Positions 4,931 through 48,778 of a stretch of 64,000 nucleotides of DNA are shown piece by piece. A program made the position numbers and the translations under genes. Every line of letters begins with the position of its first letter. Within the stretch, counting starts at the first letter, position 1. The notes below the pieces were generated by a model. That model ran no database searches and had not been told where the DNA came from. It was given only the letters and a program-made list of their open reading frames with translations. Source of the stretch: Polyangia bacterium (GTDB taxonomy: Bacteria; Myxococcota_A; Polyangia; JAHFDS01; DATFWX01); assembly GCA_035258845.1 (NCBI GenBank), contig DATFWX010000218.1:17354-81353 (forward strand), given 5' to 3'.

Positions 4931-6247
4931 TTGGCACCCGAGTTGCTTGTCGCTCGCCCGTTGCGAAGCGCTCCCGCATTTGCGCTGGCCATCCTCCTGG
5001 CCATTCCGGCCCCGGCCTGGGCTGGGCCGCCCTCTGGCGCACCGCGCGTGCGCACCCGCAACGGGAGCAGCACACCCCGCGCACGCACGTACTTCGGGTA
5101 TCACGGCAAGGAGGTCCCCCACTACTACCATCCCGAAACCGGCGCGTTTCTCTATCGGCCCCCGCGCCCGCACGTGCTTCCGCTCGACAACGGCGACGAG
5201 CCGCTCCGTTTCGTCCGGCTCAACTTCCCGAGCTCCCAGAATCTGGAGGGGATGTTCCGGGAGGTGCTGACCGATTGGGTCCATGCGTTGACCAAGATCG
5301 GAAGCATGCGGCTCAAAATCCTGGTCAACGAGGGCGATCAGGCTCGGCTCGCCGCGCTGATGCAGGACCTGCCGCCGGGGCTGCGCGCGCGCATCGAACC
5401 GGTCCCGATCGCAGGCGACAACCACGTGCGGCCCTGGCCCCGCGACCCGTCGGTGCTCCTGGCGGGCGGCCGGAAGCTGCTCCTGCCGCGAGCGCGCATG
5501 CTTGGCCACGAGGAGGAGGAGCATGAGCATCCCCAGCGGATCGCGGACTACTTCGGGGTGGTCGAGAAGTACGCGCACGCCGCCGGGTTGCCGCTCGAAC
5601 GCTCGGCCTTCCGGTTCGAAGGCGGGAACATCCTGGTGGGTCGCCGCCACGTCTTCGTCGGCTCGGACATCGTTCAAAATGCCATGGCCGATTACGACAT
5701 CACGGAGGAGGAGGCAGTCGCCGCGCTCTCGCGCGAGTTTGGCAGACCCGTGCTCTCGATTGGCAGGCGTGATGCCCAACACCCGCGCTCCGAGCTACGC
5801 CAGCCCAGACAGCACATCGATCTCGCGATGGCCGTCGTGCGCGATCGCCGGAGCGGCCGGGAGGTTGTCCTGCTGGAATCGCCGAAGCTGGCGCGAGATC
5901 TACTGGGCGATCGCCTAGGGAGCGTTGAACCCGAAGGCGCGCTCTGGCGCGATGATGAGAATTCCGAGGCCGATTTCGATGCGGCCAGGCGGGCCCTGCG
6001 CGGTGAGGGCTACGAAGTCATCGACGTGCCGGGGCTGACCACCGGGTGGGCCAGCTCGCTCAACTATACCAACGCCGTGCTGGCCTCAGGTCACGCAATG
6101 ATTCCACAGCTCGATATCCCCGAGCTCGATGTTTATGCGGCCAACGTCTATCGCCGGCTGGGCTATGAGGTGATCCCGATGCGCTCGGCCCGTCGGTCGC
6201 TCGAGCTCAATGGCGGGCCCCGCTGCCTCGGCGAGCACTGCCGCTAA
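4931..6247 (+). CDS. secreted amidinotransferase-superfamily protein (agmatine/peptidyl-arginine deiminase-like)
   Basis: N-terminal signal peptide. C-terminal ...NYTNAVLASGHAMIPQL... NGGPRCLGEHC resembles the GGGxHC catalytic-Cys end of the Porphyromonas-type deiminase / guanidino-modifying fold. Assignment from motif resemblance only. Confidence 0.45.
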   Translation: MAPELLVARPLRSAPAFALAILLAIPAPAWAGPPSGAPRVRTRNGSSTPRARTYFGYHGKEVPHYYHPETGAFLYRPPRPHVLPLDNGDEPLRFVRLNFPSSQNLEGMFREVLTDWVHALTKIGSMRLKILVNEGDQARLAALMQDLPPGLRARIEPVPIAGDNHVRPWPRDPSVLLAGGRKLLLPRARMLGHEEEEHEHPQRIADYFGVVEKYAHAAGLPLERSAFRFEGGNILVGRRHVFVGSDIVQNAMADYDITEEEAVAALSREFGRPVLSIGRRDAQHPRSELRQPRQHIDLAMAVVRDRRSGREVVLLESPKLARDLLGDRLGSVEPEGALWRDDENSEADFDAARRALRGEGYEVIDVPGLTTGWASSLNYTNAVLASGHAMIPQLDIPELDVYAANVYRRLGYEVIPMRSARRSLELNGGPRCLGEHCR

Positions 6248-6662
6248 CCCTGGGCACTCGGCAACAACTTTCAGGTGGCCGGCGTGGCCAGCGTCTATCT
6301 CGTGATGCTTGGCTGCAGAAGCGATTTGCGGCTCACGAGCGCGGCCACATAGAGGCTGGCCAGAGGGTCCGAGCGCGCGATCACATAGGTTCCGTGCGGC
6401 TCTGCGTCGTGCACGCCCAGCTCAGGTCCACAGCCAGGCGGCACTTGTCGTGCACCGTCGACAACAGGGCGTAACCGGGAGAGAGCGGCCGGCAGTCCCC
6501 AGCCCTGGCTAGTCTAGTCAGGCGCAACCGGGGTGGTCATTGCGAGTCGCCTCGCGGCGACCGCGATCGCGATTAGACGCATAGCGGGGAACCCGGTGGA
6601 GGCGCGGACCGGTGCGGCCGGCGACGCGCGCGGATGTCAAAGTCTGGCCGCGCGGTCGGGTC

Positions 6663-6947
6663 TTACCACAAGCCGTAATAAGCGCAGGCAGGTCCGTTCC
6701 AAGCCGCGTTTGCGGCGTCGTTCGCCACGCTCCACGTGGCGTCGTTCCAATCGCTTACGTTAACACCTGGGGCAAAGTCTTCTCCCGCATTTGCCGCGGC
6801 GCGCCACACCGATTCGGTGCAGGAGTAAGTCGCCAGGTTATCGAACGCCCAGTAGTTCCACACATCTAAACCTTTGCCTCCAACCACGCTCCCGAGCACC
6901 GATGCTTCGATCGAAACCAACCGCGCCTGCTTGTTCTTCTTGTTCAT
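6663..6947 (-). CDS. double-glycine-leader bacteriocin-like peptide precursor (copy 1)
   Basis: MNKKNKQARLVSIEASVLGSVVGG followed by a 70-aa Trp-rich core with 2 Cys. Hydrophobic residues at leader positions -4, -7, -12, -15 and GG at -2/-1 fit the class II / GG-leader consensus. Paralog of 7058..7342. Confidence 0.6.
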   Translation of the reverse strand: MNKKNKQARLVSIEASVLGSVVGGKGLDVWNYWAFDNLATYSCTESVWRAAANAGEDFAPGVNVSDWNDATWSVANDAANAAWNGPACAYYGLW

Positions 6948-6988
6948 AAGATGTCCTCCAGACTCTGCCTCAGCCTGCCAACTGCTTG

Positions 6989-7004
6989 TGCAGCTCGCGT
7001 GCCA
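6989..7004 (-). promoter_or_regulatory. sigma-54-type -24/-12 promoter element (TGGCACGcgagCTGCA) upstream of peptide copy 1
   Basis: In gene orientation, ctcgcctcTGGCACGCGAGCTGCAcaag lies about 50 nt upstream of the ATG. GG and GC are spaced as in the TGGCAC-N5-TTGC consensus. The identical element precedes copy 2. Confidence 0.5.
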
Positions 7005-7057
7005 GAGGCGAGAACGCCCCGTCGGCGAATGTCAACGTCTGGCCGCGCGGTCGGGTC

Positions 7058-7342
7058 TCACCACCAGCCGTAATTGGCGCAGGCAGGTCCGTTCCAAGCC
7101 GCGTATGCGGCGTCGTTCGCCACGCCCCACGTAGCTTCGTTCCAATCGCTTACGTTAACACCTGGGGCAAAGTCTTGTCCTGCATTTGCCCCGGCCTTCC
7201 ACACCGCTTCGTAGCAGGAGTTACTCGCCAGAAAAGCGAACGTCCATTCGTTCCACACATCTAAACCTCGGCCTCCAGCCACGCTCCCGAGCACCGATGC
7301 GTCGATCGAAGCCAACCGCGCCAGCTTGTTCTTCTTTTTCAT
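7058..7342 (-). CDS. double-glycine-leader bacteriocin-like peptide precursor (copy 2)
   Basis: MKKKNKLARLASIDASVLGSVAGG followed by a 70-aa Trp-rich core ending ..NGPACANYGWW. About 75% identical to copy 1. Confidence 0.6.
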   Translation of the reverse strand: MKKKNKLARLASIDASVLGSVAGGRGLDVWNEWTFAFLASNSCYEAVWKAGANAGQDFAPGVNVSDWNEATWGVANDAAYAAWNGPACANYGWW

Positions 7343-7383
7343 GATATGCCCTCAAAGCTCTGCCCTGAGCTGCCAGCCTGAAG

Positions 7384-7399
7384 TGCAGCTCGCGTGCCA
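7384..7399 (-). promoter_or_regulatory. sigma-54-type -24/-12 promoter element upstream of peptide copy 2
   Basis: Same TGGCACGCGAGCTGCA 16-mer as at 6989-7004, in the equivalent position relative to the ATG at 7342. Confidence 0.5.
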
Positions 7400-7452
7400 G
7401 AGGGCGAGAACGCCCGTAGGCGGATGTCAACGTCTGGTCGTGCGGTCGGTTC

Positions 7453-7479
7453 TCACCACCAGCCGTAATTGGCGCAGGC
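7453..7479 (-). pseudogene. 3' remnant (last 8 codons plus stop) of a third GG-leader peptide gene
   Basis: The rc reads ACANYGWW*, identical to the copy 2 C-terminus. The sequence 5' of it (in gene sense) is replaced by unrelated DNA that belongs to the integrase fragment. Confidence 0.5.
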
Positions 7480-8008
7480 ATGGTGTTCGCGATGCGCAGC
7501 AAGGAGCAAAGACGAGGTATCCGGGCGTGCAGCGAATCAACGACACAACGTGCCGAGTGCGGATCAAGTTGCGCGATCCGCGCAGCGGGAAAACGCGGGA
7601 GGTGGACAGGCTCGTCGAGGCGACGAGCGTCAGAGAAGCCGCAAGAAAACGCGCACTGCTCATGTCCGAGAAGCGCGCGGAAAACTCCGAGAGAAATTGG
7701 GGCCTCCGATCAGGGTGGGTATTCCGGTCGGACAACGGAACGCTGCGTGAGCCGAGTTCGCTTCGCAAGGCGTGGCGGGGCAGCCTCAAGGCGGCGAAGA
7801 TCGAGAAGCACTTCACCGTCCACGGGTTGCGGCGCACCTTCAACGACCTCGCAGGGCGTGCAGGCGTCGATGCGGTCGTGACGCGGGCGATCACGGCCAC
7901 GTGACCGAGCAGATGCGCGAGCACGATTCGACGGTCGGTCTGGATGAGAAGCAGGCCGCCGTGGCAAACGTTCTGCGGCTCGTTCCAGCGACGAATGTCG
8001 GGACTTAG
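7469..8008 (+). pseudogene. tyrosine recombinase (phage-type integrase), 5'-truncated and frameshifted
   Basis: Only the C-terminal catalytic half is present (...[50 protein letters not shown] / [15 protein letters not shown]...). The H-x-x-R and GH boxes are split between two frames near 7895. No N-terminal domain or start codon. Ends 63 nt before the tRNA-Gly. Confidence 0.6.
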
Positions 8009-8070
8009 GTGGAGGCGCGAGGGATCGGCCTTGACACACGCCGATGATTCGCCAATGCTCTCCCAAGTTT

Positions 8071-8143
8071 GCGGGCTTAGCTCAGTTGGTAGAGCGTCGG
8101 CTTCCCAAGCCGAAGGTCGCCGGTTCGAGACCGGTAGCCCGCT
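8071..8143 (+). tRNA. tRNA-Gly (anticodon CCC)
   Basis: Hand-folded cloverleaf. Acceptor stem GCGGGCT/AGCCCGC (7 bp). D arm GCTC-AGTTGGTAG-GAGC. Anticodon stem TCGGC/GCCGA with loop TTCCCAA, giving anticodon CCC. T arm GCCGG-TTCGAGA-CCGGT. Discriminator T. No encoded CCA. Confidence 0.85.
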
Positions 8144-8875
8144 CCGCTGCGTGAGGCCCCGGGTTGACGCAACCTGGGCACCGCTCCAGGCGCCGGCCGC
8201 GCCCACGCCACCATCCGCCGTGGTCCTCGCTGTCGCGTGTCGACCCGTCGTCCAGCGGGGGTCCACCGTCCTTCTGATTCCCGGTGATCGACGCCGATTC
8301 GCATCCGGTCCAGCAGCCCGTCGCCATCGCCAGGCCGCAAAGAAGATTCGGCAAGCAGGGCCGAGGCATCTGCTTTCTGCCGTCAAGGCTAGCAGGAACC
8401 ACACCCACAGTCAGCGCCGCGGGCGGAGCGTCCGCTATGGGAAGCTGCGATCGTGTGGGCGGGGATGAGGGCGGCGGCGTACTTCAGCTCGTTGCTGATC
8501 TTCTTGCGTTCCTGCTCGAGCCGCTCGCGCCACTCCCGTTCCCGAGGAAAATCCCTCTGGTGAACGCCGCACCAGCCAGAACGAGGGGAATAGACGGGTC
8601 TTCATGAACGCGCGAGAGCATGATATATGTCACCTCTCGATCAGCTGCAATTGATGGCGTGACGGGGGCGTGGAGTGCGACATTCCTGTCCGATCGGCCT
8701 CGTTGGCCAGACGAAACGAGTGACGAGCTGCCCTGGAGGGTTCGATCAGACGTCCGGAACTCTGCTCGGATCACCCGAGCGTCTTTGTGGACGCCACGAT
8801 GGCCGAGCAGCAAGGGCTTCCCTGCGCAGAACTCTGCCCTCGCGGTCCTAACCATTTAGGGATGATTCCCATCGC

Positions 8876-9355
8876 GTGAAGACAGAAGACGTCGCAAGGG
8901 CATACAGGATGCACGGCTATCTGGTCTTGCGACGAGCGCGACGTGTGCTGGGCAACGAGAACGAGGCCGAGGACGTGCTCCAGGAGGTGTTTCTTTCCCT
9001 GCTCGACAAGCCGGCGCAATTCGAAGGTCGGAGCGCGCTGACCACCTGGCTGTATAGTGCGACGACGCACCTTTGCCTGAATCGACTGCGCAATCAACGC
9101 ACGCGGCGCGCGATCTTGGAGCGCGCCGCGCCCCCGTTAGCGTCCCACCCGGCGCCAGGGGCCGAGACCATGGTGGCGCTTCGATTGCTGCTCGCCCAGC
9201 TGCCCGACGCGGTCGCGCGTGTAGCTGTCTACTACTATTGCGACGAGATGACCCAGGACGAGATCGCACGCGTCATGGGCTGCTCGCGCCGCCACGTCGG
9301 CAACCTTCTCGAGCGGCTCAGCGCTGCTCATCAAGACGCGGGAGGATGCGTATGA
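8876..9355 (+). CDS. ECF (sigma-70 family group 4) RNA polymerase sigma factor
   Basis: Region 2 (DVLQEVFLSLL.. TWLYSATTHLCLNRLR) and region 4 HTH (EMTQDEIARVMGCSRRHVGNLLERL). The stop overlaps the start of the anti-sigma gene. Confidence 0.85.
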   Translation: MKTEDVARAYRMHGYLVLRRARRVLGNENEAEDVLQEVFLSLLDKPAQFEGRSALTTWLYSATTHLCLNRLRNQRTRRAILERAAPPLASHPAPGAETMVALRLLLAQLPDAVARVAVYYYCDEMTQDEIARVMGCSRRHVGNLLERLSAAHQDAGGCV

Positions 9356-10089
9356 GCCAGCCGTACCAGCGATCGCGCCCTCCCTCGTGCCCCTCCGATT
9401 TGCGTCTCGACCACTTCCTCCTCGGCGAGCTGGAGGAGCAGGAGACAGCCAGCCTCCGCGCTCATCTGGATAGCTGTTCACACTGCACCGCCCGCCTGGC
9501 CGCCATGGACTCGGAGCGCGAACAGTTTGGCAGACAGTTTGGCGCATGGGTGCCCAGCAAGCCGCGTGGAAGACGATTTCGATGGCGGTTGTGGCCGGTA
9601 TTGTCGCTCGCGGCGGCTGCTGCCGCGATCTTGCTGGTGGTCGAGCTGCGTCCCGAGCGCGGAGGCTTGCCCACCATCCGTGGAAAAGGGCAGAGTCGAC
9701 TGGAGTTCTATGTCCGCCACCAGGGAGTGGTCCGCAGAGGCTCGACGGGAGAAGCGGTGCTCGCAGGTGACGCACTCCGGTTTGCCTACTCCAGCGGCGC
9801 ACCCGGATACCTTGCCGTCATCAGCCTGGACGGCCGTGGACGCGCCACAGTCTACTATCCGCCCCAATCCACCATGATCCCGATCGCGGCCGGTGACGAC
9901 ATCCTCCTACCGGCGAGCACGATCTTGGACGACGCCCCCGGACCAGAGCAGATCTGGGGCGTGTTCTGCCGAGTACCGCTCGATCTCGAGCCGATCCGCG
10001 CTCGCGTGGAAAAAACACGAAGGGCGCCGACCCTGCCCGATGGCTGTCAAATCGACGCAACGTCGATCGAAAAGCGCACGTCGCGATGA
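9346..10089 (+). CDS. zinc-finger (ZAS-type) transmembrane anti-sigma factor
   Basis: N-terminal HLDSCSHC (HxxxCxxC) motif, then one TM helix (WPVLSLAAAAAAILLVV) and a periplasmic domain. Its start overlaps the sigma gene and its stop overlaps the next gene's ATG (ATGA). Confidence 0.7.
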   Translation: MRMSQPYQRSRPPSCPSDLRLDHFLLGELEEQETASLRAHLDSCSHCTARLAAMDSEREQFGRQFGAWVPSKPRGRRFRWRLWPVLSLAAAAAAILLVVELRPERGGLPTIRGKGQSRLEFYVRHQGVVRRGSTGEAVLAGDALRFAYSSGAPGYLAVISLDGRGRATVYYPPQSTMIPIAAGDDILLPASTILDDAPGPEQIWGVFCRVPLDLEPIRARVEKTRRAPTLPDGCQIDATSIEKRTSR

Positions 10090-11663
10090 GCCCTCACCGT
10101 CTTACGGTCACCCTACTCCCGGTCGCGGCCCTGGCTGTGTTCGAAGTGGCGGCGCAGGCGCGCGTGGAGCGCTACGCCGTACTGGTCGGCAACAATCACG
10201 GCACCGCGCAAGAGACGCCCCTTCGCTATGCCGAGGACGACGCGGTTCGCCTGAAGGATGTGCTCGAGCAGCTGGGGGGTTTTCCCGCAGAGAACCTGGT
10301 CCTTATCCGCAATGGAAGCGCCGACTCGCTCACGCGCGCTTTGATTGCGACCAATGATCGAATTCGCGCAACCACGAGCGGCGGCGGAAGAGCGGTCCTG
10401 TTCGTCTATTATTCGGGACATGCGGACGCTGAGGCGCTTCATCTGGGGGCGAGCCGCCTCGAGCTCAGGGAGCTCGAGCAGCTGGTTCGCGGCTCTGCGG
10501 CCGGCTTTCGCATCCTGGTGCTCGACGCTTGCCGTTCCGGCCGGCTCACCCACGTCAAGGGGGGAAAGCTGGCGCCACCTTTCGACGTCGAGCTCGAACG
10601 CACACTCGCCAGCGAGGGAACCGTTTTCCTGACCGCCAGCGCGGCAGGCGAGGACGCGCAGGAATCCGATGAGCTCGCCGCCTCGTTCTTTACCCACTAC
10701 TTCGTCTCGGGGCTGCTGGGTGCGGCGGATCAGGACGAAAATGGCGCGGTCACGCTCGACGAAGCGTACCGGTACGCCTACGAGAACACGCTCCGATCGA
10801 GCAGTCGAACGGCAGGGAACGTGCAGCACCCGACCTTCGAATACGACCTTCGGGGGCAAGGAACTGTCGTGGTGACCATGCCCGAGCGGGGACGGCCCGA
10901 CCGTGCAACCCTGTCGTTCCCGCCTGGACGGTTCTTTCTGGTCCTACAAGGCGATGCGGACGGGCGCGTGGTAGCTGAGCTGGGGGCGCGCGAGCGCACG
11001 CGGCGGCTCAGCGTTCGACCCGGCCGATACTTTCTTCGCAGCCGAGGTCCGACCAGCCTCCTCGAAGGAACCGTCACCGCGTCGGCAGGGCGGGAAACCC
11101 TCATCGATGAAAGCCGGCTGGTACGGGTCGAATACGGCCGGCTCGTCCGCAAGGGCGAGGGCATCCGCCGAGTGGCGCACGGACTCGAGGTCGGATACCA
11201 GGTAAGGACGCCACTCTACGAGGGAGCTTTTCTCTGCCAGGGCGGTTTCGTGGGCTACGTCCTCGAGCTCGCGGCCTTGAGCATCGAACCAAGGCTCGCG
11301 TTCTGTCGGGATACAATCGACGGCGTGAACATCGCAACCACCGCGTACGACGCTGATCTCGAGCTGCGGCTGACCCATGCTTGGGACATTGGGCGCTGGA
11401 CGCTGTCGCTGGGAGGCGGCGGCGGACTGGGCCTTCTGTATGAAACCTTCGTCATCCGGGGCAAGGCACCCGATCGGGCCAGTGCCGCCGCCCAGCTCGC
11501 GGGCGAAATTGGGGTTGGGCGTGATCTGGCGCGCCACCTTTACTGGCAATGCCGTGCTGAGGGGCTGCTGTTCCTCTTTGATCGCCAGGATGCCGAGGGC
11601 CGCGTCACGTTTGGATCTGCTCTTGCGGTCCGCGGCAGCCTGGGCCTGGGATGGCATTTTTGA
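10086..11663 (+). CDS. secreted caspase-domain (peptidase C14) protein with C-terminal beta-barrel-like domain
   Basis: Signal peptide. Caspase His/Cys dyad context (VLFVYYSGHADAEAL ... FRILVLDACRSGRL). The C-terminal ~270 aa show alternating hydrophobic beta-strand patterns and end ...SLGLGWHF, an aromatic-terminal outer-membrane beta-barrel signature. Confidence 0.65.
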   Translation: MSPHRLTVTLLPVAALAVFEVAAQARVERYAVLVGNNHGTAQETPLRYAEDDAVRLKDVLEQLGGFPAENLVLIRNGSADSLTRALIATNDRIRATTSGGGRAVLFVYYSGHADAEALHLGASRLELRELEQLVRGSAAGFRILVLDACRSGRLTHVKGGKLAPPFDVELERTLASEGTVFLTASAAGEDAQESDELAASFFTHYFVSGLLGAADQDENGAVTLDEAYRYAYENTLRSSSRTAGNVQHPTFEYDLRGQGTVVVTMPERGRPDRATLSFPPGRFFLVLQGDADGRVVAELGARERTRRLSVRPGRYFLRSRGPTSLLEGTVTASAGRETLIDESRLVRVEYGRLVRKGEGIRRVAHGLEVGYQVRTPLYEGAFLCQGGFVGYVLELAALSIEPRLAFCRDTIDGVNIATTAYDADLELRLTHAWDIGRWTLSLGGGGGLGLLYETFVIRGKAPDRASAAAQLAGEIGVGRDLARHLYWQCRAEGLLFLFDRQDAEGRVTFGSALAVRGSLGLGWHF

Positions 11664-17314: not shown

Positions 17315-20300
17315 TCACGCGGGCAATCGCCGCCCTTTCCAGGCCAAGTAAACCGCCGGATACACCATCAGCTCCAGAATGGCCGACGTCACCACGCCGC
17401 CGACCATGGGCGCGGCGATGCGCTTCATGACATCCGCGCCCGTGCCCTGCGACCACAGAACCGGCAGAAGGCCCGCCAGAATGGTCGCGACCGTCATCAT
17501 CTTGGGGCGGATGCGCTTGACGGCACCATGGAAAATCGCTTCCTTGGCCGCCTCGCGCGTCTGCGGCGCCCACTCGCGCCAGGCCAGGTCGAGGTAGAGC
17601 AGCATCACGATCCCGGTCTCGGCATCGAGCCCGGCCAGAGCGATGATGCCGACCCAGACCGCGACCGACAGGTTGTAACCAAGCAGCGACAACAACCAGA
17701 AGGCGCCCACCAGCGAGAAGGGAACCGCGAGCATGACCAGCAGAGCCTCGGTCACGCTGCGCGAGTTGAAGAAGAGCAGAATGAAGATGATCGCGAGCGT
17801 CACCGGGACCACGACCAGGAGGCGCGCTTTCGCTCGTTCCAGGTAGCGGTACTGCCCCGCCCACTCCAAGCGGCAGCCGGCCGGAAGCGTGAGCCGAGCG
17901 ATCGCCTTGCGGGCATCCCCGACGTAGTCCTCGATCGGCCGCGCGGTGTCGGCGAACACGTAGCCATAGAGCTGGCCGCCCTGGTCGCGCAGCATCGACG
18001 GGCCGTCGCGCGACGAAAGGCGGGCGAGCTGACCCAGCGGCACCTGGGCACCGTCCATCGTCGCCACCAGGACGCGCTCGAGATCGGGCACGCTGGCGCG
18101 GAAGTCGCGCGCGTAGCGCACGGTGACCGGGTAGCGCTCGCGCCCCTCGATGGTCGTGGTCAGGGTCTTGCCGCCGATTGCGCTCTCGATGGCATCCTCG
18201 ACGTCCTCGACATTGAGGCCATAGCGCGCAGCCGCGTCGCGGTCGATGTCGAAGTCCAGGTAGTGCCCCCCACCGAAGCGCTCGGCGAACGCGCTGCGCG
18301 TGCCCGGCACCGTGCGCAGCGCGGCCTCGACCTTGCGCGCGACCTCGTCGATCACGTCGAGGTTGGGGCCCAGGACCTGGATGCCGAGCGGGCTGCGCAC
18401 GCCGGTCGCCAGCATCTCGGTGCGGGTCTGAATCGGCATCCACCAGACATTCGGCATTCCCGGAAATTGCATCGCGTCGTCGAGCTTCTTGAGCAGCGCG
18501 TCCCAGTCCTCGCCCGGGGGCCACTTCTCGCGCGGCTGGAGCTCGACCACGGTCTCGAACATCTCGAGCGGCGCCGGGTCGGTCGCGGTCGAGAAACGGC
18601 CGGCCTTGCCGAACACGCGCCGGACCTCGGGGAACTGGGCCAGCACCCGGTCCATCCGCTGCAAGGTATCGCGCGCGGTCTCGCCGCTCATGCCGGGGAC
18701 CGAGCTCGGCATGTAGAGCAGCGTGCCCTCGTTGAGCGGCGGCATGAACTCGCTGCCCAGGCTCCTCACGATCGGCACCGTCGCCGCCACCAGCAGCGCG
18801 GCCGCGCCGATGACGAGGTACCGCCTGCGCAAGGCAAAGCGGCACACGGGCCCGTACAGGGCCGCCAGCGCGCGCGTGATCGGATTTTGGTCCTCGCTGC
18901 GAATGCGGCCCCGAATGAACAGCGCAGCAATCGCCGGCACCAGCGTGACCGACAAGATGGCGGCGAAGCCCATCGAGAAGGTCTTCGTAAAAGCCAGCGG
19001 CTTGAACAGGCGTCCCTCGGTGCCCTCGAGCGTGAACACCGGCAAGAAGCCGACGGTGATGACCAGAAGCGAGAAGAAGATGGGCCGACCAACTTCGGTC
19101 AGCGCCGACGTCACGACCTCGTGGCGCGGCTGCGGCCGGCCCGCCTGCTCCCAGCGTTCCAACCGCTTGTGGACGTTTTCGACCACGATGATGGCGGCGT
19201 CCACCATCGCGCCGATCGCGATCGCAATTCCGCCCAGGCTCATGATGTTTGCGGTCAGCCCCATGCGCGCCATCGGGATGAACGCCAGCAAGACCGCAAT
19301 CGGCAGCATGGCGACCGGCACCAGCGTCGAGCGCACATGCAGGAGGAAGACCAGGATGACCAGGCTGACCACGATCATCTCTTCGAATAGAGTGAGCCGC
19401 AGCGTGTGGATGCTGGCGCGGATCAGCTCCGAGCGATCGTAGGTCGGGACGACCTGGACGCCCGCCGGCAGAGTGGCTCTGAGCTCGTCGAGCCGGGCCG
19501 TGACCGCGCCGATGACGGCGAGCGCGTTCTCGCCCTGGCGCATGATGACCACCGCGCCCACGACCTCGCCCCTGCCGTCGAGCTCGGCCAGCCCGCGCCG
19601 CTGGGCCGGCCCGATGCGCACCCGTGCCAGGTCGCGCAGCATGATCGGCGTGCCCTTCTCGCTGCCCAGCACGACTTTCTCCAGATCGGCGGGCTGCTTC
19701 ACGTATCCGCGACCCCGGATGAAATGCTCGGTGCCCGAGATCTCCAAGACCCGCCCTCCCACGTCATTGTTGGATTTGCGCACCGCGTTCATGACCTGCA
19801 TCAGCGAGACGCCGAACTGCTGCAGGCGATTGGGATCGAGATCGATCTGGTACTCCTTGCCAAAGCTGCCCACGCTGGCGACCTCGGCCACGCCGGGCAC
19901 CGATTGCAGCGCGTAGCGCAGCGTCCAGTCCTGGAGCGACTGCAACTGCTCGAGCGTGTGCTGGCCGCTGCTGTCGGTCAGCGCGTACTCGAATACCCAG
20001 CCCACGCCGGTCGCGTCCGGGCCCAGAGTCGGCGTCACGCCGGCGGGCAGCTTGGCTCCGATCGCCGACAGGTACTCGAGCACGCGGCTGCGCGCCCAGT
20101 ACAGGTCCGCGCCCTCCTCGAAGATGACGTGGACGAACGACATGCCAAACATCGACTGGCCGCGCACCGCGGTCACGTGCGGGGCGCCGACCAGCGTGGT
20201 CACGATGGGATACGTGACCTGGTCTTCCACGAGGTCGGGCGAACGGCCCATCCACTCGCTGAAAATCGTGACCTGGACATCCGACAGGTCGGGCAGCGCG

Positions 20301-20410
20301 TCGAGCGGCGTCGCGCCCAGCGACTGCACGCCGTAGGCGCCGCCCAGCACGACCAGCGCGACCGTCAAGATGCGATGGCGCGCACAGAGCGCAATCAGGC
20401 GCGCGATCAT
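17315..20410 (-). CDS. czcA: heavy-metal RND efflux pump, CzcA/CusA family (HME-RND)
   Basis: 1031 aa, 12-TM RND architecture. Conserved stretches such as GAVVIMRQGENAL and AIGAMVDAAIIVVEN. Last gene of a three-gene operon whose coding regions overlap. Confidence 0.9.
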   Translation of the reverse strand: MIARLIALCARHRILTVALVVLGGAYGVQSLGATPLDALPDLSDVQVTIFSEWMGRSPDLVEDQVTYPIVTTLVGAPHVTAVRGQSMFGMSFVHVIFEEGADLYWARSRVLEYLSAIGAKLPAGVTPTLGPDATGVGWVFEYALTDSSGQHTLEQLQSLQDWTLRYALQSVPGVAEVASVGSFGKEYQIDLDPNRLQQFGVSLMQVMNAVRKSNNDVGGRVLEISGTEHFIRGRGYVKQPADLEKVVLGSEKGTPIMLRDLARVRIGPAQRRGLAELDGRGEVVGAVVIMRQGENALAVIGAVTARLDELRATLPAGVQVVPTYDRSELIRASIHTLRLTLFEEMIVVSLVILVFLLHVRSTLVPVAMLPIAVLLAFIPMARMGLTANIMSLGGIAIAIGAMVDAAIIVVENVHKRLERWEQAGRPQPRHEVVTSALTEVGRPIFFSLLVITVGFLPVFTLEGTEGRLFKPLAFTKTFSMGFAAILSVTLVPAIAALFIRGRIRSEDQNPITRALAALYGPVCRFALRRRYLVIGAAALLVAATVPIVRSLGSEFMPPLNEGTLLYMPSSVPGMSGETARDTLQRMDRVLAQFPEVRRVFGKAGRFSTATDPAPLEMFETVVELQPREKWPPGEDWDALLKKLDDAMQFPGMPNVWWMPIQTRTEMLATGVRSPLGIQVLGPNLDVIDEVARKVEAALRTVPGTRSAFAERFGGGHYLDFDIDRDAAARYGLNVEDVEDAIESAIGGKTLTTTIEGRERYPVTVRYARDFRASVPDLERVLVATMDGAQVPLGQLARLSSRDGPSMLRDQGGQLYGYVFADTARPIEDYVGDARKAIARLTLPAGCRLEWAGQYRYLERAKARLLVVVPVTLAIIFILLFFNSRSVTEALLVMLAVPFSLVGAFWLLSLLGYNLSVAVWVGIIALAGLDAETGIVMLLYLDLAWREWAPQTREAAKEAIFHGAVKRIRPKMMTVATILAGLLPVLWSQGTGADVMKRIAAPMVGGVVTSAILELMVYPAVYLAWKGRRLPA

Positions 20411-21849
20411 GGCGCAGCTCGCCAGCGCGGAAGCGCATCCCGGAGCTTGGCCTCGCTCGAGAGCAGAAAGGTGGCCGACAGCGCGACCCGGTCTCCGGCT
20501 GCAAGCCCCGCTTTCACCTCGTGGTACTCGCCGGCCTGCACGCCCACCTGCACCTCCACCGGCTGCAGCCGACCCTGGCCCCGATCCACGAACGCGTAGC
20601 GGTGCTCTCCCGACAAGAGCAGCGCGCTGTCGGGCACCGCGAGCGCGACGCCCAGCGGCACTTCGATGACGACATCGGCAAACATGCCCGGGCGCAGGGT
20701 CAGGCGCGGATTGATGAGCTCCAGGCGCGCCTCCAGCGTGCGCGTCTTCTGGTCGACGGTCGGCGCCACGAACGTCACCCGCGCCTCCAGAGCGCTGTCG
20801 GGCTGCGACGGCAGCGTGATGGTGGCGGGCTGGCCGACCGCGACCCGCGCGGCGTCACGTTCGTAGATGGCCGCCTGCACCCACACCCGTCCCAGATTGC
20901 CGATCCGGTACAGCATGGTGCCCGGCATCACGTGGGCGCCCTCGACCACGTTCTTCTCCAGGACCACGCCGCTGGCCGGCGAATAGATGGTGGCCCGGCC
21001 GTCGGCCTTGTCACGCCGTTCAAGGGCCGCGATCTGGTCCTTGGTGATGTCCCAGTGGGTGAGGCGCTGGGTGATTGCGCCCACGATCTCGGGCGCGCCG
21101 CCGGTGCGTCGCGCAGCCAGAAGCTCCTGCTCGGCCGCCAACAGGTCGGGGCTGTAGAGCGTTGCCAGCGCCTGCCCCGTTCGCACCGCCTTGCCGGTCT
21201 CGCCGACCAGGAGCTTCTCGACGAAGGCCTCGTACTTGAGCGTGACCTCGCCCACTTTGCGCTCGTCCACCTCGACCAGGCCGGCGGCGCGCAGGGTCAC
21301 CGCGAGTGGTCGCTGCTCGACGGTCGCGAAGGTGACGCCGATGAGCTGCTGGCGCTCGGGTGAGACTTCGATGACCGCGCCCGTGCCGGTGCCCGTGCCC
21401 GCACCCGCGCCCGCGCCCGCGCCCGCTACGCTGCCGCGGCCGCTCTGCACCCGGAACCCTTTGTGCGGGGGCGATACTTTGAGCCCGACCTCCTGGTGCG
21501 GATGGCCTTGCGCATCGATGCCAAGCGTGAGCGACCAGTCGCCAGCCATGGGCAGCCGGTACGTGATCTGGTAGCGCCCGCGGTCTTGCGGCTTGACCTC
21601 GCCGCCGCCCTTCATTTCGGGCATCGCGCCCATCGCAGGCATGCCATAAACGAACGCGATGTGGGCACCGTCGACCGGGTTGCCGCTCGCGTCCTTGATC
21701 GTGACCAGAAGCCGGTTGTCGCCGCTGGTCGGCGGATCGGGATCGATCGCGAGCGCGAGCTCGAGATCGCCGACGGCGGCCGTCTGCGGCGCGCCTTTGG
21801 CGCAGCTCAAAACCGCAAGCGCGGCCCAAAGGAGGGTTCTTGTCTTCAT
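20407..21849 (-). CDS. czcB: RND membrane-fusion protein (CzcB/CusB-like) with N-terminal FixH/YtkA-like Met-rich domain
   Basis: Signal peptide. N-terminal Ig-like domain with MPAMGAMPEM. (GA)n(GT)n linker. Then MFP lipoyl/beta-barrel regions. Overlaps czcA and czcC. Confidence 0.85.
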   Translation of the reverse strand: MKTRTLLWAALAVLSCAKGAPQTAAVGDLELALAIDPDPPTSGDNRLLVTIKDASGNPVDGAHIAFVYGMPAMGAMPEMKGGGEVKPQDRGRYQITYRLPMAGDWSLTLGIDAQGHPHQEVGLKVSPPHKGFRVQSGRGSVAGAGAGAGAGTGTGTGAVIEVSPERQQLIGVTFATVEQRPLAVTLRAAGLVEVDERKVGEVTLKYEAFVEKLLVGETGKAVRTGQALATLYSPDLLAAEQELLAARRTGGAPEIVGAITQRLTHWDITKDQIAALERRDKADGRATIYSPASGVVLEKNVVEGAHVMPGTMLYRIGNLGRVWVQAAIYERDAARVAVGQPATITLPSQPDSALEARVTFVAPTVDQKTRTLEARLELINPRLTLRPGMFADVVIEVPLGVALAVPDSALLLSGEHRYAFVDRGQGRLQPVEVQVGVQAGEYHEVKAGLAAGDRVALSATFLLSSEAKLRDALPRWRAAP

Positions 21850-23156
21850 GGCTCATGCTCCTCTCGGGTTCCAGATTGGGCAGCCTGGGCCAGGCCCAGA
21901 TCGGCCGCGACGGCCCGCTCCAGCTCGGCCAGGCGCTGCTCGTACATCGCCATGTGCGTCGCGAGATCGAGCTCGTGCATCTGGAGATCGCGGTCGGCAT
22001 CGAGCACCATCAGGAAGCTGCCCCGACCAGCCACGTAGGCGGCGGTTGCGCTGTGCAAGGCCTGCCGCGCCACCGGAATCAGTTGATGGTGCAGCTCGAC
22101 CTGCCGCTTTTCGGCTGCCACTTCGGCCGCGGCATCCGCGACCTCGGCCAGCACCTTGTTCTCGAGCGCCTTAAGGTCGGCGCGCGCGGCCTCGAGCTGC
22201 GCCGACGCGGCGGCTTGCTGGGGCTGATTCTTGCTGGCGCCGAAGATGGGCAGGTTGCCCTGGAGACCGACGAACAGGAAATCCGAGACGCCCGGCCCCG
22301 ACATTCCGAAGGTGTGCATCTCACCCGCGATCAGCCCCAGGTCGGGCACACGCTGCGCCTCGGCGAGAGTGATGTGCGCCTGCGCCTGCGCGATGGCGGC
22401 GCGCGCGGCCCAAAGCTCGGGGCGCCCGGAGAGCGCGCGATCGCGTAGCTCCGCGAAAGCCGGCAACGCGGGCACCAGGCTGGGCTCGGCGGTCGTCCCC
22501 ATCTCCGATCCGGGCGGACGGTCGAGCAGCGCCACCAGCTTGGCGTTGGCCGCCACCCGGCGCGCCTGCGCCGCTTCGCGATCCGACTCGACCTTGAGCA
22601 GCTCGGCCTGCGCACGCAACGCCTCCGACTGCTCGCCGCGCCCGGCCGCAATGCGCGCGGAGGCCGCGCCCAGCAGCGAGCGCAGCGTGCGCTCGATTTC
22701 GCGATCGACCTCGATCGTGCGCTCGGCCAGAAACAGATCGAAATAGGCCTTGGCCAGCCCGGCTTCGACGTCGCGCAGCCTGGCCTCGGCCTGGGCCCGC
22801 GCCATCGCCTCGGCGCCCCGCGCCAGGTCACGCCGGGCCGCGCGCTTGCCGCCCAGCGGAACCGTCTGGGTGAGCTGGAACATCACCGGCACGGTCGAGA
22901 AATCGACCGGCGCGTTCCACAGCTCCACCATCAGCATCGGGTCGTCGAGGGCGCCCGCGGGTGCGACCGAGGACGTGGCGGCGCGCGCTTGCGCCCGCGC
23001 GGCCCGCACCTCGGGATTCTTTTGACGGGCTTCGGCGATGAGCGCGGCCAGCCGGATCACGGGGGGCCGCTCCTGCGCGCGGGCGGGCCCGGCCAGCCCG
23101 ACCACGGCAAGACACAACGCGAGCTTTCTCATCTGACACCTCACGGACAGATCCAT
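21846..23156 (-). CDS. czcC: outer-membrane efflux protein (TolC/CzcC family)
   Basis: Signal peptide followed by two coiled-coil/beta-barrel repeats typical of OEP family proteins. First gene of the czc operon. Confidence 0.8.
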   Translation of the reverse strand: MDLSVRCQMRKLALCLAVVGLAGPARAQERPPVIRLAALIAEARQKNPEVRAARAQARAATSSVAPAGALDDPMLMVELWNAPVDFSTVPVMFQLTQTVPLGGKRAARRDLARGAEAMARAQAEARLRDVEAGLAKAYFDLFLAERTIEVDREIERTLRSLLGAASARIAAGRGEQSEALRAQAELLKVESDREAAQARRVAANAKLVALLDRPPGSEMGTTAEPSLVPALPAFAELRDRALSGRPELWAARAAIAQAQAHITLAEAQRVPDLGLIAGEMHTFGMSGPGVSDFLFVGLQGNLPIFGASKNQPQQAAASAQLEAARADLKALENKVLAEVADAAAEVAAEKRQVELHHQLIPVARQALHSATAAYVAGRGSFLMVLDADRDLQMHELDLATHMAMYEQRLAELERAVAADLGLAQAAQSGTREEHEP

Positions 23157-23207
23157 GCTCAGCGGACCGGCCGAAACCGGCCCGCGCCCAAGATCCGTGC
23201 GCGCGAA

Positions 23208-27554: not shown

Positions 27555-27747
27555 GCGACCTAGCGACCCGCGATTGACCAGCCTGAACCTGTAAACCCGA
27601 CGAGACATCTTCTCGCGACCGCCGTCACCGGGTGGCAACAACAGAAGCCGCCGACCGCTGGCGCCGCCTGCTGGACAACTCCCTGATCTGCCGAGGTCGG
27701 GCGCTGGCACACCAGCTGCAGTTCGTCCCTCTCGAGGTGACGACGCC

Positions 27748-35580: not shown

Positions 35581-35661
35581 GGGTGGCCGGGGGGTCGGCT
35601 CAACCTGTGATCTGCCGCACCCTTAGCAAGCCGAGCCTCCCGGGCGCGTAATAACAAGCCG

Positions 35662-37062
35662 ATGAGTCCAGCGTCGGTTACAATAGGCCTGCCGATGTCC
35701 GCGGAAACTTTAGGCCAGGCCGTGCGCATCGTGGTGGGGGCAGCGAAGCAGCCCGAAACCCACGAGTTCATCTACGATCACCTGCCGATCCGAATCGGAC
35801 GTAACCCGCTCAACGAGCTGCAGCTCGATGACCGACATGTCTCACAATGGCATGCAGTGGTGCTCTACCTCGACGGTGCGATCCGGGTCGCAGATGTAGG
35901 CAGCCGCAACGGCACCTATGTCGACGGCCGTTCACTGACCGTGGGCGAGGCGGTTCCGCTGCTCGGATCGAGCCGCGTCGAGATCCGCCCGTTCACGCTC
36001 GAGGTCGATCCGCTCGATGAGCCCGCGGCCGCCAAGCCGCAGATGCTGCGCGCGCAGGGCCGGCAATGGGTCGATCACACGCGCACCTATGAAGCCGAGC
36101 AGGCGGAGTCCGACTCGGCCTCGACCTCGCTGGTGACGGCATGGAAGGCCGACCTGCTCTCGCAGCTGCGGCCGCTCTACCTGGCCTACGAGGGCGACTG
36201 GGCTTTCCTGTGCGATCGGCTGCGCGAGTACCTCGATCAGGTGGGGCCGCAGATGCGCCTGGCGCTGCTGCGCGAGCTGCAGGCCGAGCTGCCCGCGTAT
36301 CGTTGGGACAGTGCCTTTCCGGAGCTGCGCGCCGACGAGAAAACGCCCGCCCCCTCTTTCGACCCCGAGCATCCCGCGATGCCCGCATTGCGCGATCTGG
36401 CGGAGCATCTGATGGGACGCAAGCACGCGCTGGCAAGCCCCGCGGAGGTGATCGCGTTTTTGGCCCGCGTCCGCGACATCACCGACGTGTTTTTGCATTT
36501 TACGCACAGCCTGCTCAAGGGCTCGCGCCAGATCGAGTCGAGCCTCGCGATGCCGCTGTTCGAGCGCGAGAGCAACCCACTGCATCGCGTGCGGGACGTC
36601 GGCGATCTGGGTGCGCGCCTGTTGGATTTCGAGGCCGATCGAGAGGGTCGCGCGCCGCCCTGGCTCGAAGCCGCTTTCAAAAGTGTGCTCATGCAGCAGA
36701 TCGTGATGCTGAGTGGGATGATGAACGGTGTGCGCACGCTGCTCGACGAGCTGGCGCCCGAGCGGGTGGCCGAGGAGCTGAAGCTGGGCAAAAAGCGCGT
36801 GGGGCCATTCCGCGCCCAAAGACTGTGGCAGGCCTATCAGGCGCGCCACCGCCAGCTCAGCCAGGAGGATAAGGCCACCTTCGAGCGCATCTTTGGTCCC
36901 CATCTCGCGCGCGCGTACGACGAGATCATGGGTGAATGCTACGACTCGCGAGGAGCCGGCAGGCCCGGGACGGCGAGCCAGCCCGGGGGGGCCACGGGCC
37001 CGACCCGCGTCGTGGTGGGGCCGAAGGCGCGTGCCAGCCGCGGCGGCCGCAAGCCGCGCTAG
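35662..37062 (+). CDS. FHA-domain protein (T6SS Fha/TagH-like)
   Basis: N-terminal FHA domain (IRIGRNPLNELQLDDRHVSQWHAVVLYLDGAIRVADVGSRNGTYVDG) plus a ~350-aa C-terminal region. Lies immediately upstream of the PAAR gene and near tssM/tssL and a PpkA-like kinase. Confidence 0.75.
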   Translation: MSPASVTIGLPMSAETLGQAVRIVVGAAKQPETHEFIYDHLPIRIGRNPLNELQLDDRHVSQWHAVVLYLDGAIRVADVGSRNGTYVDGRSLTVGEAVPLLGSSRVEIRPFTLEVDPLDEPAAAKPQMLRAQGRQWVDHTRTYEAEQAESDSASTSLVTAWKADLLSQLRPLYLAYEGDWAFLCDRLREYLDQVGPQMRLALLRELQAELPAYRWDSAFPELRADEKTPAPSFDPEHPAMPALRDLAEHLMGRKHALASPAEVIAFLARVRDITDVFLHFTHSLLKGSRQIESSLAMPLFERESNPLHRVRDVGDLGARLLDFEADREGRAPPWLEAAFKSVLMQQIVMLSGMMNGVRTLLDELAPERVAEELKLGKKRVGPFRAQRLWQAYQARHRQLSQEDKATFERIFGPHLARAYDEIMGECYDSRGAGRPGTASQPGGATGPTRVVVGPKARASRGGRKPR

Positions 37063-37189
37063 TGTCCTTTTCCGAGGACGTAGGCCCCAGTTTGCCGTCA
37101 ACGACCTTTCAACTCGCCACACTAAGCGGCGCAACGGCAGGGGATTCGCCCCTTTGACAGCCTCTGGGGGCCAAGTATCCTTAAGGGTT

Positions 37190-37810
37190 ATGAGCCGGGG
37201 AGGCCGGCCCGCGGCCCACGTCGGGAGCAAGACCAATCACGGGATCACCAGCGCGGACAAGCAGACCGTCCACGTAGGGGGCCGGCCGGTCTCGTACGTC
37301 AACGCCCCGCATAGCTGCAAAATGCACAAGGGGAAAGGCCGCAAGGTCGCCTCGGGCGCCCCCACCGTGCTGGTTTACGGTGTGCCCGTGACCCGGGTCG
37401 ACGAGAAGATGACCTGCAGCTGCAAGGTTGTGGACGGCGTCCAGAACGTGCTGGTCGGCGACGCCAAGCCCGAGCTGGGCCCGCTCGAGCCGGTCGATCT
37501 CTGGATCCGCCTCGATCTGGACCCCCAGGCGGCGTCGGTGTGCTCGGATCGCTACATCCTGACCGCGTCGGACGGCTCGTATCGACGCCAGAAGATTGTG
37601 CTGTCCAACCACATTCCCAACCAAGAGACGGTCGACCTGCATTACCTGGGCTTGCATCGCAGCAAGAGCTACAGCCTGGAGGTGATCGAAGAAGGCGGAG
37701 CCTCCACGTTCGTGTTCCAGAACGTGCCGTACCCACAGCTGGCGGGGCTCAAGGGACCCGCGCGCACGCCCCCGCCCGCAGGCGGCGGCTCGTGCTCCTG
37801 CCATTCCTAG
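37190..37810 (+). CDS. PAAR-domain protein (T6SS spike tip) with C-terminal extension
   Basis: N-terminal PAAR-like repeats (HGITSADKQTVHVGGRPVSYVNAPHSC ... VLVYGVPVTRVDEKMTCSCKVVDG). Start trimmed to ATG 37190. A vgrG is nearby. Confidence 0.65.
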   Translation: MSRGGRPAAHVGSKTNHGITSADKQTVHVGGRPVSYVNAPHSCKMHKGKGRKVASGAPTVLVYGVPVTRVDEKMTCSCKVVDGVQNVLVGDAKPELGPLEPVDLWIRLDLDPQAASVCSDRYILTASDGSYRRQKIVLSNHIPNQETVDLHYLGLHRSKSYSLEVIEEGGASTFVFQNVPYPQLAGLKGPARTPPPAGGGSCSCHS

Positions 37811-37811
37811 C

Positions 37812-38591
37812 ATGGCGGTTGCGCTGACCAGCGATCTGCAGGGGCCCGACCATCCCGGTCCGACCGTCCACGTTCAGAAGAAGATCAAGCTGGTCATGTA
37901 CCCGGGCGAGTCCACCAACGCCAGCGGTACGACGCTCGGGCATATCTACGTGGTGGGCGGCAACGGCGAGTCGTACGAGATTGCGGCCGGGCCGCCGGCC
38001 GGATTCGCCGACCGGGGCGGCCACTCGGCCATCCCGACCCCGGCTGGCAAGTACGTGCTCGGTCCCAAGCACCATCACGTGACGCCGGGCTGGCCGGCTT
38101 CGACGGTGCCGTGGGGCGCCGATCTGCGCACCGACACAAACGGCGAGGTCGAGTTCTCGCCCGATGGCGGCAAGAGCTGGCGCAAGGCGACCGGGATGAA
38201 TGGCGCCACCACGCAGGCGTCGATTCGGTTCCTCGAGAAGGATTGGAAGCGGCCGCTGACCGAGGACGAGAAGCAGCAGGTGAACGCCCAGGCGCGCGGC
38301 TTGTTCTACGACGACACGGGCAAGCTGCAGACCCCTTATCGCGGCAACGACTTTGGCAACTGGGCCTGGAACCTGACCCGAGGCGGGGCGGTCACACCGT
38401 ATTACCTGCACACCACCCCACCCGACGAGGCCGCGAGCGCGGCCGGGCAGCCGGTCAGCCTGGTCAACTCGCACGGCTGCGTGCACATCCGCCCGGCCGA
38501 CCGCGACGAGATGATGCAGAAGGGCTATCTGCGGAAGGGCGTCGAGATCGAGGTCAAGCCGTACGGGCAGAAGGGTCCTCCCAAACCGTGA
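37812..38591 (+). CDS. putative T6SS effector with L,D-transpeptidase (YkuD) fold, Tlde1-like
   Basis: C-terminal ...YYLHTTPP...SLVNSHGCVHIRP matches the YkuD catalytic SHGC(V/I)R motif, with a His about 20 residues upstream. The gene starts 1 nt after the PAAR stop. No signal peptide. Confidence 0.5.
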   Translation: MAVALTSDLQGPDHPGPTVHVQKKIKLVMYPGESTNASGTTLGHIYVVGGNGESYEIAAGPPAGFADRGGHSAIPTPAGKYVLGPKHHHVTPGWPASTVPWGADLRTDTNGEVEFSPDGGKSWRKATGMNGATTQASIRFLEKDWKRPLTEDEKQQVNAQARGLFYDDTGKLQTPYRGNDFGNWAWNLTRGGAVTPYYLHTTPPDEAASAAGQPVSLVNSHGCVHIRPADRDEMMQKGYLRKGVEIEVKPYGQKGPPKP

Positions 38592-39484: not shown

Positions 39485-39512
39485 CGCCTTTCGATAGTGG
39501 TAAGAAGGCCGT

Positions 39513-41922: not shown

Positions 41923-41923
41923 G

Positions 41924-45403: not shown

Positions 45404-45404
45404 G

Positions 45405-48768: not shown

Positions 48769-48778
48769 CTTCGTTCGC

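Follow-up and report, generated by a model that had tools for sequence, protein, structure and literature searches.

Class IIa microcins such as MccV (colicin V), MccL and MccN are peptides of 5-10 kDa, for the most part neutral or anionic, with a hydrophobic fraction of about 61% and disulfides as their sole modification (PMC10233263), and class II microcin-like peptides have been validated almost exclusively in Enterobacteriaceae (PMC10233263, PMC12219008). Here we describe an array of small peptide genes at 6612-7480 of a 64,000-nucleotide stretch of a Polyangia bacterium (positions 17,354 to 81,353 of contig DATFWX010000218.1, assembly GCA_035258845.1), which we call the window. The array comprises two full 94-codon open reading frames (ORFs) and a partial third copy, all on the minus strand. 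Our overall reading, to which we assign a probability of roughly 55%, is that these genes encode peptides with double-glycine (GG) leaders that would be controlled by sigma-54 and an activator, exported by a peptidase-containing ATP-binding cassette transporter (PCAT) and microcin-like in their action.

The array belongs to a sequence family that shares several properties with class IIa microcins, namely a Gram-negative producer and a leader predicted to be cleaved after GG or GA. The masses of 7.1-7.7 kDa lie within the microcin range, the hydrophobic fraction of 56-60% (AVLIMFWPG scale) is near that of the microcins, both groups are neutral to anionic or acidic, and the two invariant cysteines lead us to expect the same modification, a disulfide. 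Adjacent paralogues also occur in both, as arrays in this family and as three MccV-like genes in Xylella (PMC10233263). In contrast, the cores have no sequence or profile similarity to the microcins, so that the GG site alone aligns, and leader residue -14 differs from the published signal patterns. Microcins have linked genes for immunity, the PCAT and a membrane-fusion protein (MFP), whereas the family loci do not; microcin regulation responds to iron (Fur) or stationary phase, whereas the family has a sigma-54-type promoter; and, unlike the microcin genes, the family genes are chromosomal, dispersed and found in an uncultured member of the class Polyangia. We have not filed the family as class IIa microcins because it lacks three defining features of that class, namely homology and linked genes for immunity and export. 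The peptides probably act in the manner of class IIa microcins or of other secreted effectors with a GG leader.

Two further groups of peptides invite comparison. Gram-positive class II bacteriocins and GG pheromones (PF10439, PF03047) have the same leader architecture, and the leader is the sole region in which weak similarity to their hidden Markov models (HMMs) was found; the leucocin A leader, ...LDNSALEQVVGG, closely resembles the ...IDNSVLSRVAGG of the family. However, the Gram-positive peptides are short and cationic, whereas the family cores are 50-72 aa long, acidic and Trp-rich, the HMM matches lie below the curated thresholds, and the cell envelope and the secretion route differ. 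Prochlorosins, the Nif11/NHLP precursors of cyanobacteria and the pneumococcal GG peptides are dispersed, multi-copy precursors served by one distant transporter. The family resembles such sets in having paralogues at unrelated loci, no transporter of its own, a conserved leader and hypervariable cores, but its leader is short and classical compared with Nif11/NHLP, no lanthionine synthetase or other modifying enzyme was seen, and a separate sigma-54 box precedes each gene. Peptides with GG leaders, paralogues in tandem and orphan precursors at dispersed loci are already known kinds. To the extent that the searched databases and literature allow this to be judged, the sequence family, its fold and the presence of sigma-54 boxes across the family are new.

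The layout of the array (Table 1) agrees with the initial annotation, which had described two complete paralogues of about 94 aa and the tail of a third, without stating the strand, in a unit repeating head to tail. A repeat search recovered this unit with its 395-bp period: 6630-6929 and 7025-7324 are 89% identical, and the third partial unit (7413-7480, 68 nt) is 93% identical. With respect to the direction of transcription, the truncated copy comes first, upstream of the other two; its promoter, its leader and most of its core are lost, and unrelated sequence precedes the final ACANYGWW and stop codon. Contigs from several tropical-soil metagenomes (L001-L005 and L016) show the same arrangement at 99.7-100% identity across this stretch, and the array is therefore not an assembly artefact. 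A GGAGG-type motif lies 5′ of all family genes in the upstream comparison. The genes are overlapped on the plus strand by ORFs at 6612-6869 and 6986-7264, which we dismissed as Arg-rich antisense artefacts arising from high-GC sequence; among family members, conservation is confined to the minus-strand frame.

Table 1 Coordinates of the array, its signals and the neighbouring features in the window
Feature	Position	Strand	Basis or remark
Whole head-to-tail array, two full units and one truncated unit	6623..7480	-	395-bp period
Peptide gene copy 2, 94 aa	7058..7342	-	ORF call and translation
Copy 2 leader codons, MKKKNKLARLASIDASVLGSVAGG	7271-7342	-	translation
Copy 2 core, 70 aa, N-terminus RGLDVWNEW	7061-7270	-	translation
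Copy 2 stop codon	7058-7060	-	
Peptide gene copy 1, 94 aa	6663..6947	-	ORF call and translation
Copy 1 leader	6876-6947	-	
Copy 1 core, N-terminus KGLDVWNYW	6666-6875	-	
Copy 1 stop codon	6663-6665	-	
Third, upstream copy: 3′ remnant, 8 codons (ACANYGWW) and stop	7453..7480	-	repeat match, translation
Sigma-54-type -24/-12 box TGGCACGCGAGCTGCA, copy 2	7384..7399	-	starts 57 nt 5′ of ATG
Sigma-54-type -24/-12 box TGGCACGCGAGCTGCA, copy 1	6989..7004	-	starts 57 nt 5′ of ATG
Shine-Dalgarno-like GAGGG, copy 2	7349..7353	-	6 nt 5′ of ATG; read directly
Shine-Dalgarno GGAGG, copy 1	6955..6959	-	7 nt 5′ of ATG
Decayed, frameshifted tyrosine integrase remnant	7500..7990 (from 7480)	+	coordinates approximate; PF00589 E = 7.7e-5, below curated cutoff
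tRNA-Gly(CCC)	8071-8145	+	sole Rfam match
Distant PAD_porph (agmatine/peptidyl-arginine deiminase-like) protein	4931-6247	+	E = 1.7e-4, below curated cutoff

The recent duplication or diversification that had been suggested for the array is visible in the comparison of copy 1 with copy 2, which differ at 27 nonsynonymous and 5 synonymous positions, giving a ratio of nonsynonymous to synonymous substitution rates (dN/dS) of 1.58 overall and 1.20 in the core. Because this ratio is ~1.2-1.6, the two sequences are to be seen as diversifying or relaxed, with no strong purifying selection. The peptide scaffold is nevertheless constrained, as indicated by motif conservation across the family.

About 40 nt after each stop codon (GAcCCGACCGCGCGGCCAGACgTTGACAT...) are also kept in all three units (6623-6662, 7018-7057 and 7413-7452, minus strand). 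This stretch, which reads GA(C/A)CCGACCGC(G/A)CG(G/A)CCAGAC(G/T)TTGACAT... and has the near-palindrome GACCGCGCGGCC inside, could be a protein-binding site or part of an enhancer for the promoter of the next gene. Its interpretation as a terminator was ruled out; no intrinsic terminator was detected within 6300-8200, and the spacer RNA folds no better than shuffled sequences (z = -1.5, -0.5 and 0.1).

The product of copy 1 has the same sequence as GenBank HJZ87503.1 (hypothetical protein VKN99_20150 of a Polyangia bacterium metagenome-assembled genome, MAG), and elsewhere in the same MAG there is at least one more paralogue (P0019, VKN99_07640). An initial search gave 5 family clusters, exhaustive HMMER searching of 1.84 billion representatives gave 11 matches, one of them spurious, and profile searches gave 25 clusters and then 4 more, or about 30 in total among 5.8 billion proteins. 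All of these clusters have lengths of 77-96 aa and none carries a Pfam family, and conservation can be followed down to ~32% identity. The members originate from soil metagenomes, mostly the same Panama soil samples, or from one Polyangia MAG, and scans of 185,579 GTDB representative genomes and of IMG/VR viral contigs found no member. The spurious match, P0010, was judged so on inspection of its sequence; it is a 746-aa repeat protein with five repeated stretches that matched the leader region of the profile alone (best stretch 4-31). As a profile of the core alone found no larger protein with this domain, the core is not a module of polymorphic toxins. Judged by these searches, the array represents a small, rare, unnamed and unannotated family of GG-leader precursor peptides.

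The family genes lie dispersed in neighbourhoods that have nothing in common, and pairs or arrays of them are frequent. P0004 and P0011 form a convergent pair on L010, and multiple copies occur on L018 and L034 (two each), on L026 (at least two) and on L037 (three). The tandem array of P0007, P0022 and a frameshifted upstream copy belongs to the regions L037 900-2083 and L035 1888-2229, and on L035 it is followed by a DDE_3 transposase fragment.

The leaders carry the evidence for the proposed export route. In the window peptides, V, L, I and L occupy positions -4, -7, -12 and -15, and the GG-type spacing originally noted in these two peptides was recovered in 25/25 aligned members, which conform to the pattern [IL]-x9-G-[GA] throughout. 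Positions -2/-1 are G-G/A in every member (G-A in one), position -7 is L and position -12 is I or L in all 25, position -4 is V, I or A in all 25, and position -15 is L, F or W in 24. The length of the leader ranges from 20 to 34 aa, with variation on the N-terminal side alone. A divergent member, P0032, joins a classical leader, ELSTEELGSVNGG (also given as LSTEELGSVNGG), which has a precomputed Pfam ComC (PF03047) match, to the core motifs of the family (CQDAV...AWNGPACADYGY). In the proposed comparison of the leaders with bacteriocin leader models, ComC (PF03047) and Bacteriocin_IIc (PF10439) each matched three members at E ~0.009, below threshold, and the window peptides themselves gave nothing significant in Pfam or NCBIfam. 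In hhalign, 14 leader columns aligned with pre-MccV in register at the GG at a probability of 2.4%; the MccV sequence used for this agrees in length and hydrophobicity with the values tabulated in the review. On the basis of the leader sequence, processing after the GG and export by a PCAT are likely.

The window cores have 70 aa and 2 Cys, as first described, and 7-8 Trp, and family cores range from 50 to 72 aa, with masses of 7.1-7.7 kDa for the close relatives. They are acidic, with a pI of 4.0-4.7 and a net charge between -3 and -6, contain much Ala, Trp and Asn, and are free of any transmembrane stretch. C43, C88, V47 and W83 of the precursor are invariant, and two motifs, W-x-[FW]-x(1-2)-[LF]-A-S-x-S-C-x-x-A-V and the C-terminal A-W-N-G-P-x-C-x-Y-Y-G-W-[WF], are conserved on either side of a middle loop of variable length. 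With 25 sequences as input, AlphaFold2 predicts a small helical domain with a pLDDT (predicted local distance difference test score) of 87-94 in the core. The initial view that the cores resemble no nameable bacteriocin was upheld in sequence and fold comparisons, and no known domain was matched in Pfam; a Foldseek search of the PDB with the first model returned nothing at E <3, and a PDB sequence search returned levansucrase signal-region matches (E ~0.16) that we attribute to chance.

The upstream regions suggest how the genes are controlled. The identical element that the initial annotation had placed before each gene, TGGCACGCGAGCTGCA, occurs exactly twice in the 64 kb, both times at the expected positions, and both boxes match 11/12 positions of TGGCACG-N4-TTGCW. 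The consensus pattern TGGCACGNNNNYTGCW has a chance expectation of 0.05, and 0/100 shuffles reached two matches. The sigma-54-like character of the box extends to the family: a GG-N10-GC box agreeing with 8-11/12 consensus positions lies 5′ of 14/14 distinct family genes scored, that is, of every distinct family gene with upstream DNA available, and was also read by eye before each gene of the three-gene array on L037. In 12 of the 14 the box lies 44-57 nt from the ATG (TGGCACGTGAGCTGCA, CGGCACGCGACCTGCA, CGGCATGCGAGCTGCA, TGGCACACCACCTGCA, TGGCACATCACCTGCA, TGGCACGTGACCTGCA, TGGCACATCGCGTGCA, CGGCACACGAGCTGCA and similar variants), and in the two members of a divergent sub-family the boxes TGGCCCCAAACTTGCA and TGGTCACGAACTTGCA lie at 100 nt and 78 nt, respectively. 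In alignments of homologues that are 55-60% identical in protein, the box is the sole conserved upstream island besides the ribosome-binding site. Sigma-54 promoters of this consensus, TGGCACG-N4-TTGC(T/A), have been validated by mutation for natural-product genes of Myxococcus xanthus (PMC7910581). From these sequence comparisons, we consider a sigma-54 promoter to be very probable.

The phylum and the promoter class are common to the family and to the control of polyketide synthase and nonribosomal peptide synthetase genes by sigma-54 and enhancer-binding proteins (EBPs) in M. xanthus. The M. xanthus case involves large biosynthetic operons, mostly intragenic promoters and defined Nla28 sites (PMC7910581), whereas the family has intergenic boxes, one for each tiny ribosomal peptide gene, and no activator site was identified. 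In the literature, we found no description of sigma-54-driven genes for GG peptides or bacteriocin precursors; the known link between rpoN and bacteriocins is the sensitivity of target cells via the mannose phosphotransferase system. A six-frame scan of the window found no GAFTGA or EBP Walker motif. A CGACGGG-like element recurs at -20 to -50 from the box at several loci but could not be validated, and in the L037 array a conserved GGCGACACCTC-GCGTCGACGGGGGATGAC element stands just 5′ of each sigma-54-like box. A relaxed box pattern had just two non-family matches in the window with both strands counted (128 kb). One, CGGCACTTGTCGTGCA at 6439-6454 (+), is situated in non-coding sequence downstream of the array, from where it faces copy 1 in the antisense direction; the other, TGGCACACCAGCTGCA at 27705-27720 (+), lies within an M64 peptidase gene.

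On this evidence, we propose that each gene is transcribed alone from its own -24/-12 promoter. Because such a promoter needs an ATP-dependent enhancer-binding activator, the genes would probably be off until a specific signal arrives. The leader of ~24 aa would be recognized by the C39 domain of a PCAT encoded elsewhere in the genome and cleaved after Gly-Gly, and the ~7.6-kDa core would be exported through a type I secretion conduit, fold into a small domain of three helices, which a single disulfide joining the two invariant Cys probably pins, and act extracellularly. The likeliest role would be that of a receptor-dependent, microcin-like effector, antagonistic or strain-discriminating, the paralogues of which diversify quickly; tandem paralogues with dN/dS of ~1.2-1.6 fit arms-race or specificity evolution. 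A specifically antibacterial, microcin-like role, proposed by analogy, is tentative and in our estimate falls somewhat short of an even chance. The family is a sequence-novel addition with a confidently predicted structure from predatory soil myxobacteria, a group prized for antimicrobials, and it provides a case from comparative genomics in which every examined gene for a ribosomal secreted peptide has a sigma-54-type promoter, an unusual mode of regulation. If this is confirmed, the box would give a genomic handle on the rest of the regulon and its activator, and would reveal a tightly off, activator-gated expression logic for secreted effectors. The cores probably carry no modifications, and the platforms already available for microcin secretion in E. 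coli could therefore be used on them directly.

Several observations weigh against this proposal. The curated GG-leader HMMs match below threshold only, and the signal patterns published for enterobacterial microcins and pediocin-like peptides, M...Rx[IL]x9G[GAS] and M...[KEQI]x[IL]x9G[GAS] (PMC12219008), match 0/25 leaders, because residue -14 is A, V or G. The cores lack sequence or fold similarity to known bacteriocins, and their acidity (pI ~4) is unlike that of the cationic class II bacteriocins of Gram-positive bacteria and nearer to that of the Gram-negative class IIa microcins. The dN/dS of the window copies is statistically indistinguishable from 1. The promoter tally excludes the five most divergent members, all from one sample (3300047160), and no enhancer motif (upstream activating sequence, UAS) could be defined, as a k-mer search gave generic GC-rich words. 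No PCAT, exporter-type MFP, ABC ATPase or C39 domain was found within the window by a six-frame motif scan and Pfam searches of essentially all sizeable ORFs, nor was a PCAT, MFP or C39 domain found beside the relatives of the array on related contigs, so that the exporter is assumed and not seen. Finally, no immunity-like membrane protein is conserved next to the genes at the family loci, whereas canonical microcins have one. The early observation that neither an exporter nor an immunity gene lies near the array thus applies to the window and to all other loci examined. The sole immunity-like candidate at any locus is a 75-aa ORF with two predicted transmembrane segments on L033 (1660-1887, +), just 5′ of the P0016 gene, and it is not conserved elsewhere.

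Because no immunity genes were found and sigma-54 has a developmental context, it is also plausible that the same GG/PCAT export and sigma-54 control serve secreted mini-proteins that act as intercellular signals or kin-recognition cues, for example in social behaviour or development, to which the population of the producer itself would respond. Sigma-54 and many activators drive the developmental cascade of myxobacteria (PMC7910581, PMC3162934), no immunity gene accompanies any copy, and the acidic, soluble cores are predicted to be folded and not membrane-active; the many paralogues with a conserved scaffold and variable loops, as well as the weak matches to ComC, a representative of the pheromones among GG-leader peptides, would also suit this role. 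In contrast, no receptor kinase is linked to any locus, and tandem multiplication with dN/dS >=1 is more typical of antagonistic effectors. Known GG pheromones, of ~17-26 aa, are also much shorter. In addition, the absence of immunity genes is shared by some GG-leader bacteriocins of Gram-negative bacteria, such as the Bacteroides peptides (PMC10233263). We therefore regard it as unlikely, while worth keeping in view, that the family is a sigma-54/EBP-gated repertoire of disulfide-pinned mini-proteins with a new fold that serve as polymorphic identity or developmental signals in an uncultured Polyangia lineage. If it were true, a ribosomal, PCAT-exported signalling code would be wired into the myxobacterial sigma-54 developmental cascade, with the tandem arrays yielding allelic diversity.

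The peptides might instead be precursors of peptides made by the ribosome and then modified post-translationally (RiPPs), in which the GG leader would recruit distant enzymes, for example for Trp/Cys cross-linking, and the product would be heavily modified. The cores are indeed Trp-rich, the prochlorosins are a case of dispersed multi-copy precursors on which enzymes encoded at a distance act, and two RiPP models show weak similarity in the leader region, namely TIGR04139 (E = 0.073, 13.6 bits against a cutoff of 40) and TIGR04497 (three members, best E = 0.024). However, all of these matches fall far below the curated cutoffs, and none of more than 12 distinct loci has a modification enzyme next to it, with no radical-SAM or ATP-grasp neighbours; an ABC transporter, C39 peptidase or HlyD-type protein was likewise not found at the family loci. 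Moreover, the prediction that the 50-72-aa core folds into a helical domain is a high-confidence one, and just two Cys are conserved. These findings make a heavily modified product improbable.

As regards the box itself, the 16-mer could be the operator of another regulator or a part of the repeated cassette, with transcription by a sigma-70-family holoenzyme. In most copies the -12 element is CTGCA and not TTGCA, no UAS was identified, and in the window the box follows the stop codon of the upstream gene by only ~54 nt of spacer. On the other hand, GG, GC and the exact 10-nt spacing are invariant in 17/17 boxes, the flanks of which have diverged beyond alignment, and the different boxes of the divergent subfamily, TGGCCCCAAACTTGCA and TGGTCACGAACTTGCA, still obey this rule. 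Neither a -35/-10 candidate nor any other sigma-70-like promoter was found within 6300-8200. We thus consider it decidedly improbable that the box is anything other than a sigma-54 promoter.

The leader is polar, with conserved R, D/E, S and N, and AlphaFold2 predicts it to be disordered, from which we conclude that it is not a Sec signal; the possibility of a Sec signal, raised at the outset as a challenge to the GG leader, was examined in the window leaders, in which the maximum 19-residue Kyte-Doolittle mean is 0.84-1.05 and no uninterrupted hydrophobic core of 10-15 residues occurs. It is therefore highly improbable that the N-terminus serves as a signal of the Sec type or of another type, or that it is never removed, with the Gly-Gly being incidental: the positively charged N-terminus (KKKNK) and the small Ala/Gly near the putative site would be in keeping with it, but the conserved polar residues fall within the would-be hydrophobic region, the GG (or GA) and the -4/-7/-12/-15 periodicity are maintained as described above, and the leaders vary in length on the N-terminal side alone.

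The array is flanked in the window by the PAD_porph-like gene on one side and by the integrase remnant and tRNA-Gly(CCC) on the other. The remnant abuts and truncates the third copy, the homology of which ends at 7480, sits directly 5′ of the tRNA gene and reads toward it; its N-terminal arm-like segment and its C-terminal catalytic segment (HGLRRTF...) are in different frames, and no att-like repeat of the tRNA 3′ end was found. The GC content of the window is 63-74% and falls from ~0.70 to ~0.63 between roughly 6 and 17 kb. At other family loci, the neighbours include an RCC1-repeat protein, a Ser/Thr kinase with cytochrome c domains, nitroreductase and His_Phos_1, glyoxalase and DoxX, M16 peptidases, SurE and rubrerythrin.

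Elsewhere in the window, a 599-aa NHL-repeat lipoprotein-like protein precedes the PAD_porph gene on the opposite strand, and an apparent operon just downstream of the tRNA (8876-11663, +) encodes an extracytoplasmic function sigma factor (Sigma70_r2/r4), a zf-HC2 anti-sigma factor and a caspase-like Peptidase_C14 protein. The genes at 17315-23207 (-) encode a resistance-nodulation-division operon with an AcrB-family pump, an HlyD_D23 MFP with an N-terminal YtkA domain and an OEP outer-membrane factor; this operon is of the CusCBA-like efflux type and is not a PCAT system. A lone MacB_PCD/FtsX-type permease is encoded at 51754-53178 (+), with no ABC ATPase adjoining it or elsewhere in the window. 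A type VI secretion cluster extends over 35611-50554 and contains an FHA protein with T6SS_FHA_C, PAAR, a YkuD-domain protein, TssM/IcmF (1319 aa), TssL/DotU, a Ser/Thr kinase with a PEGA domain, and VgrG.

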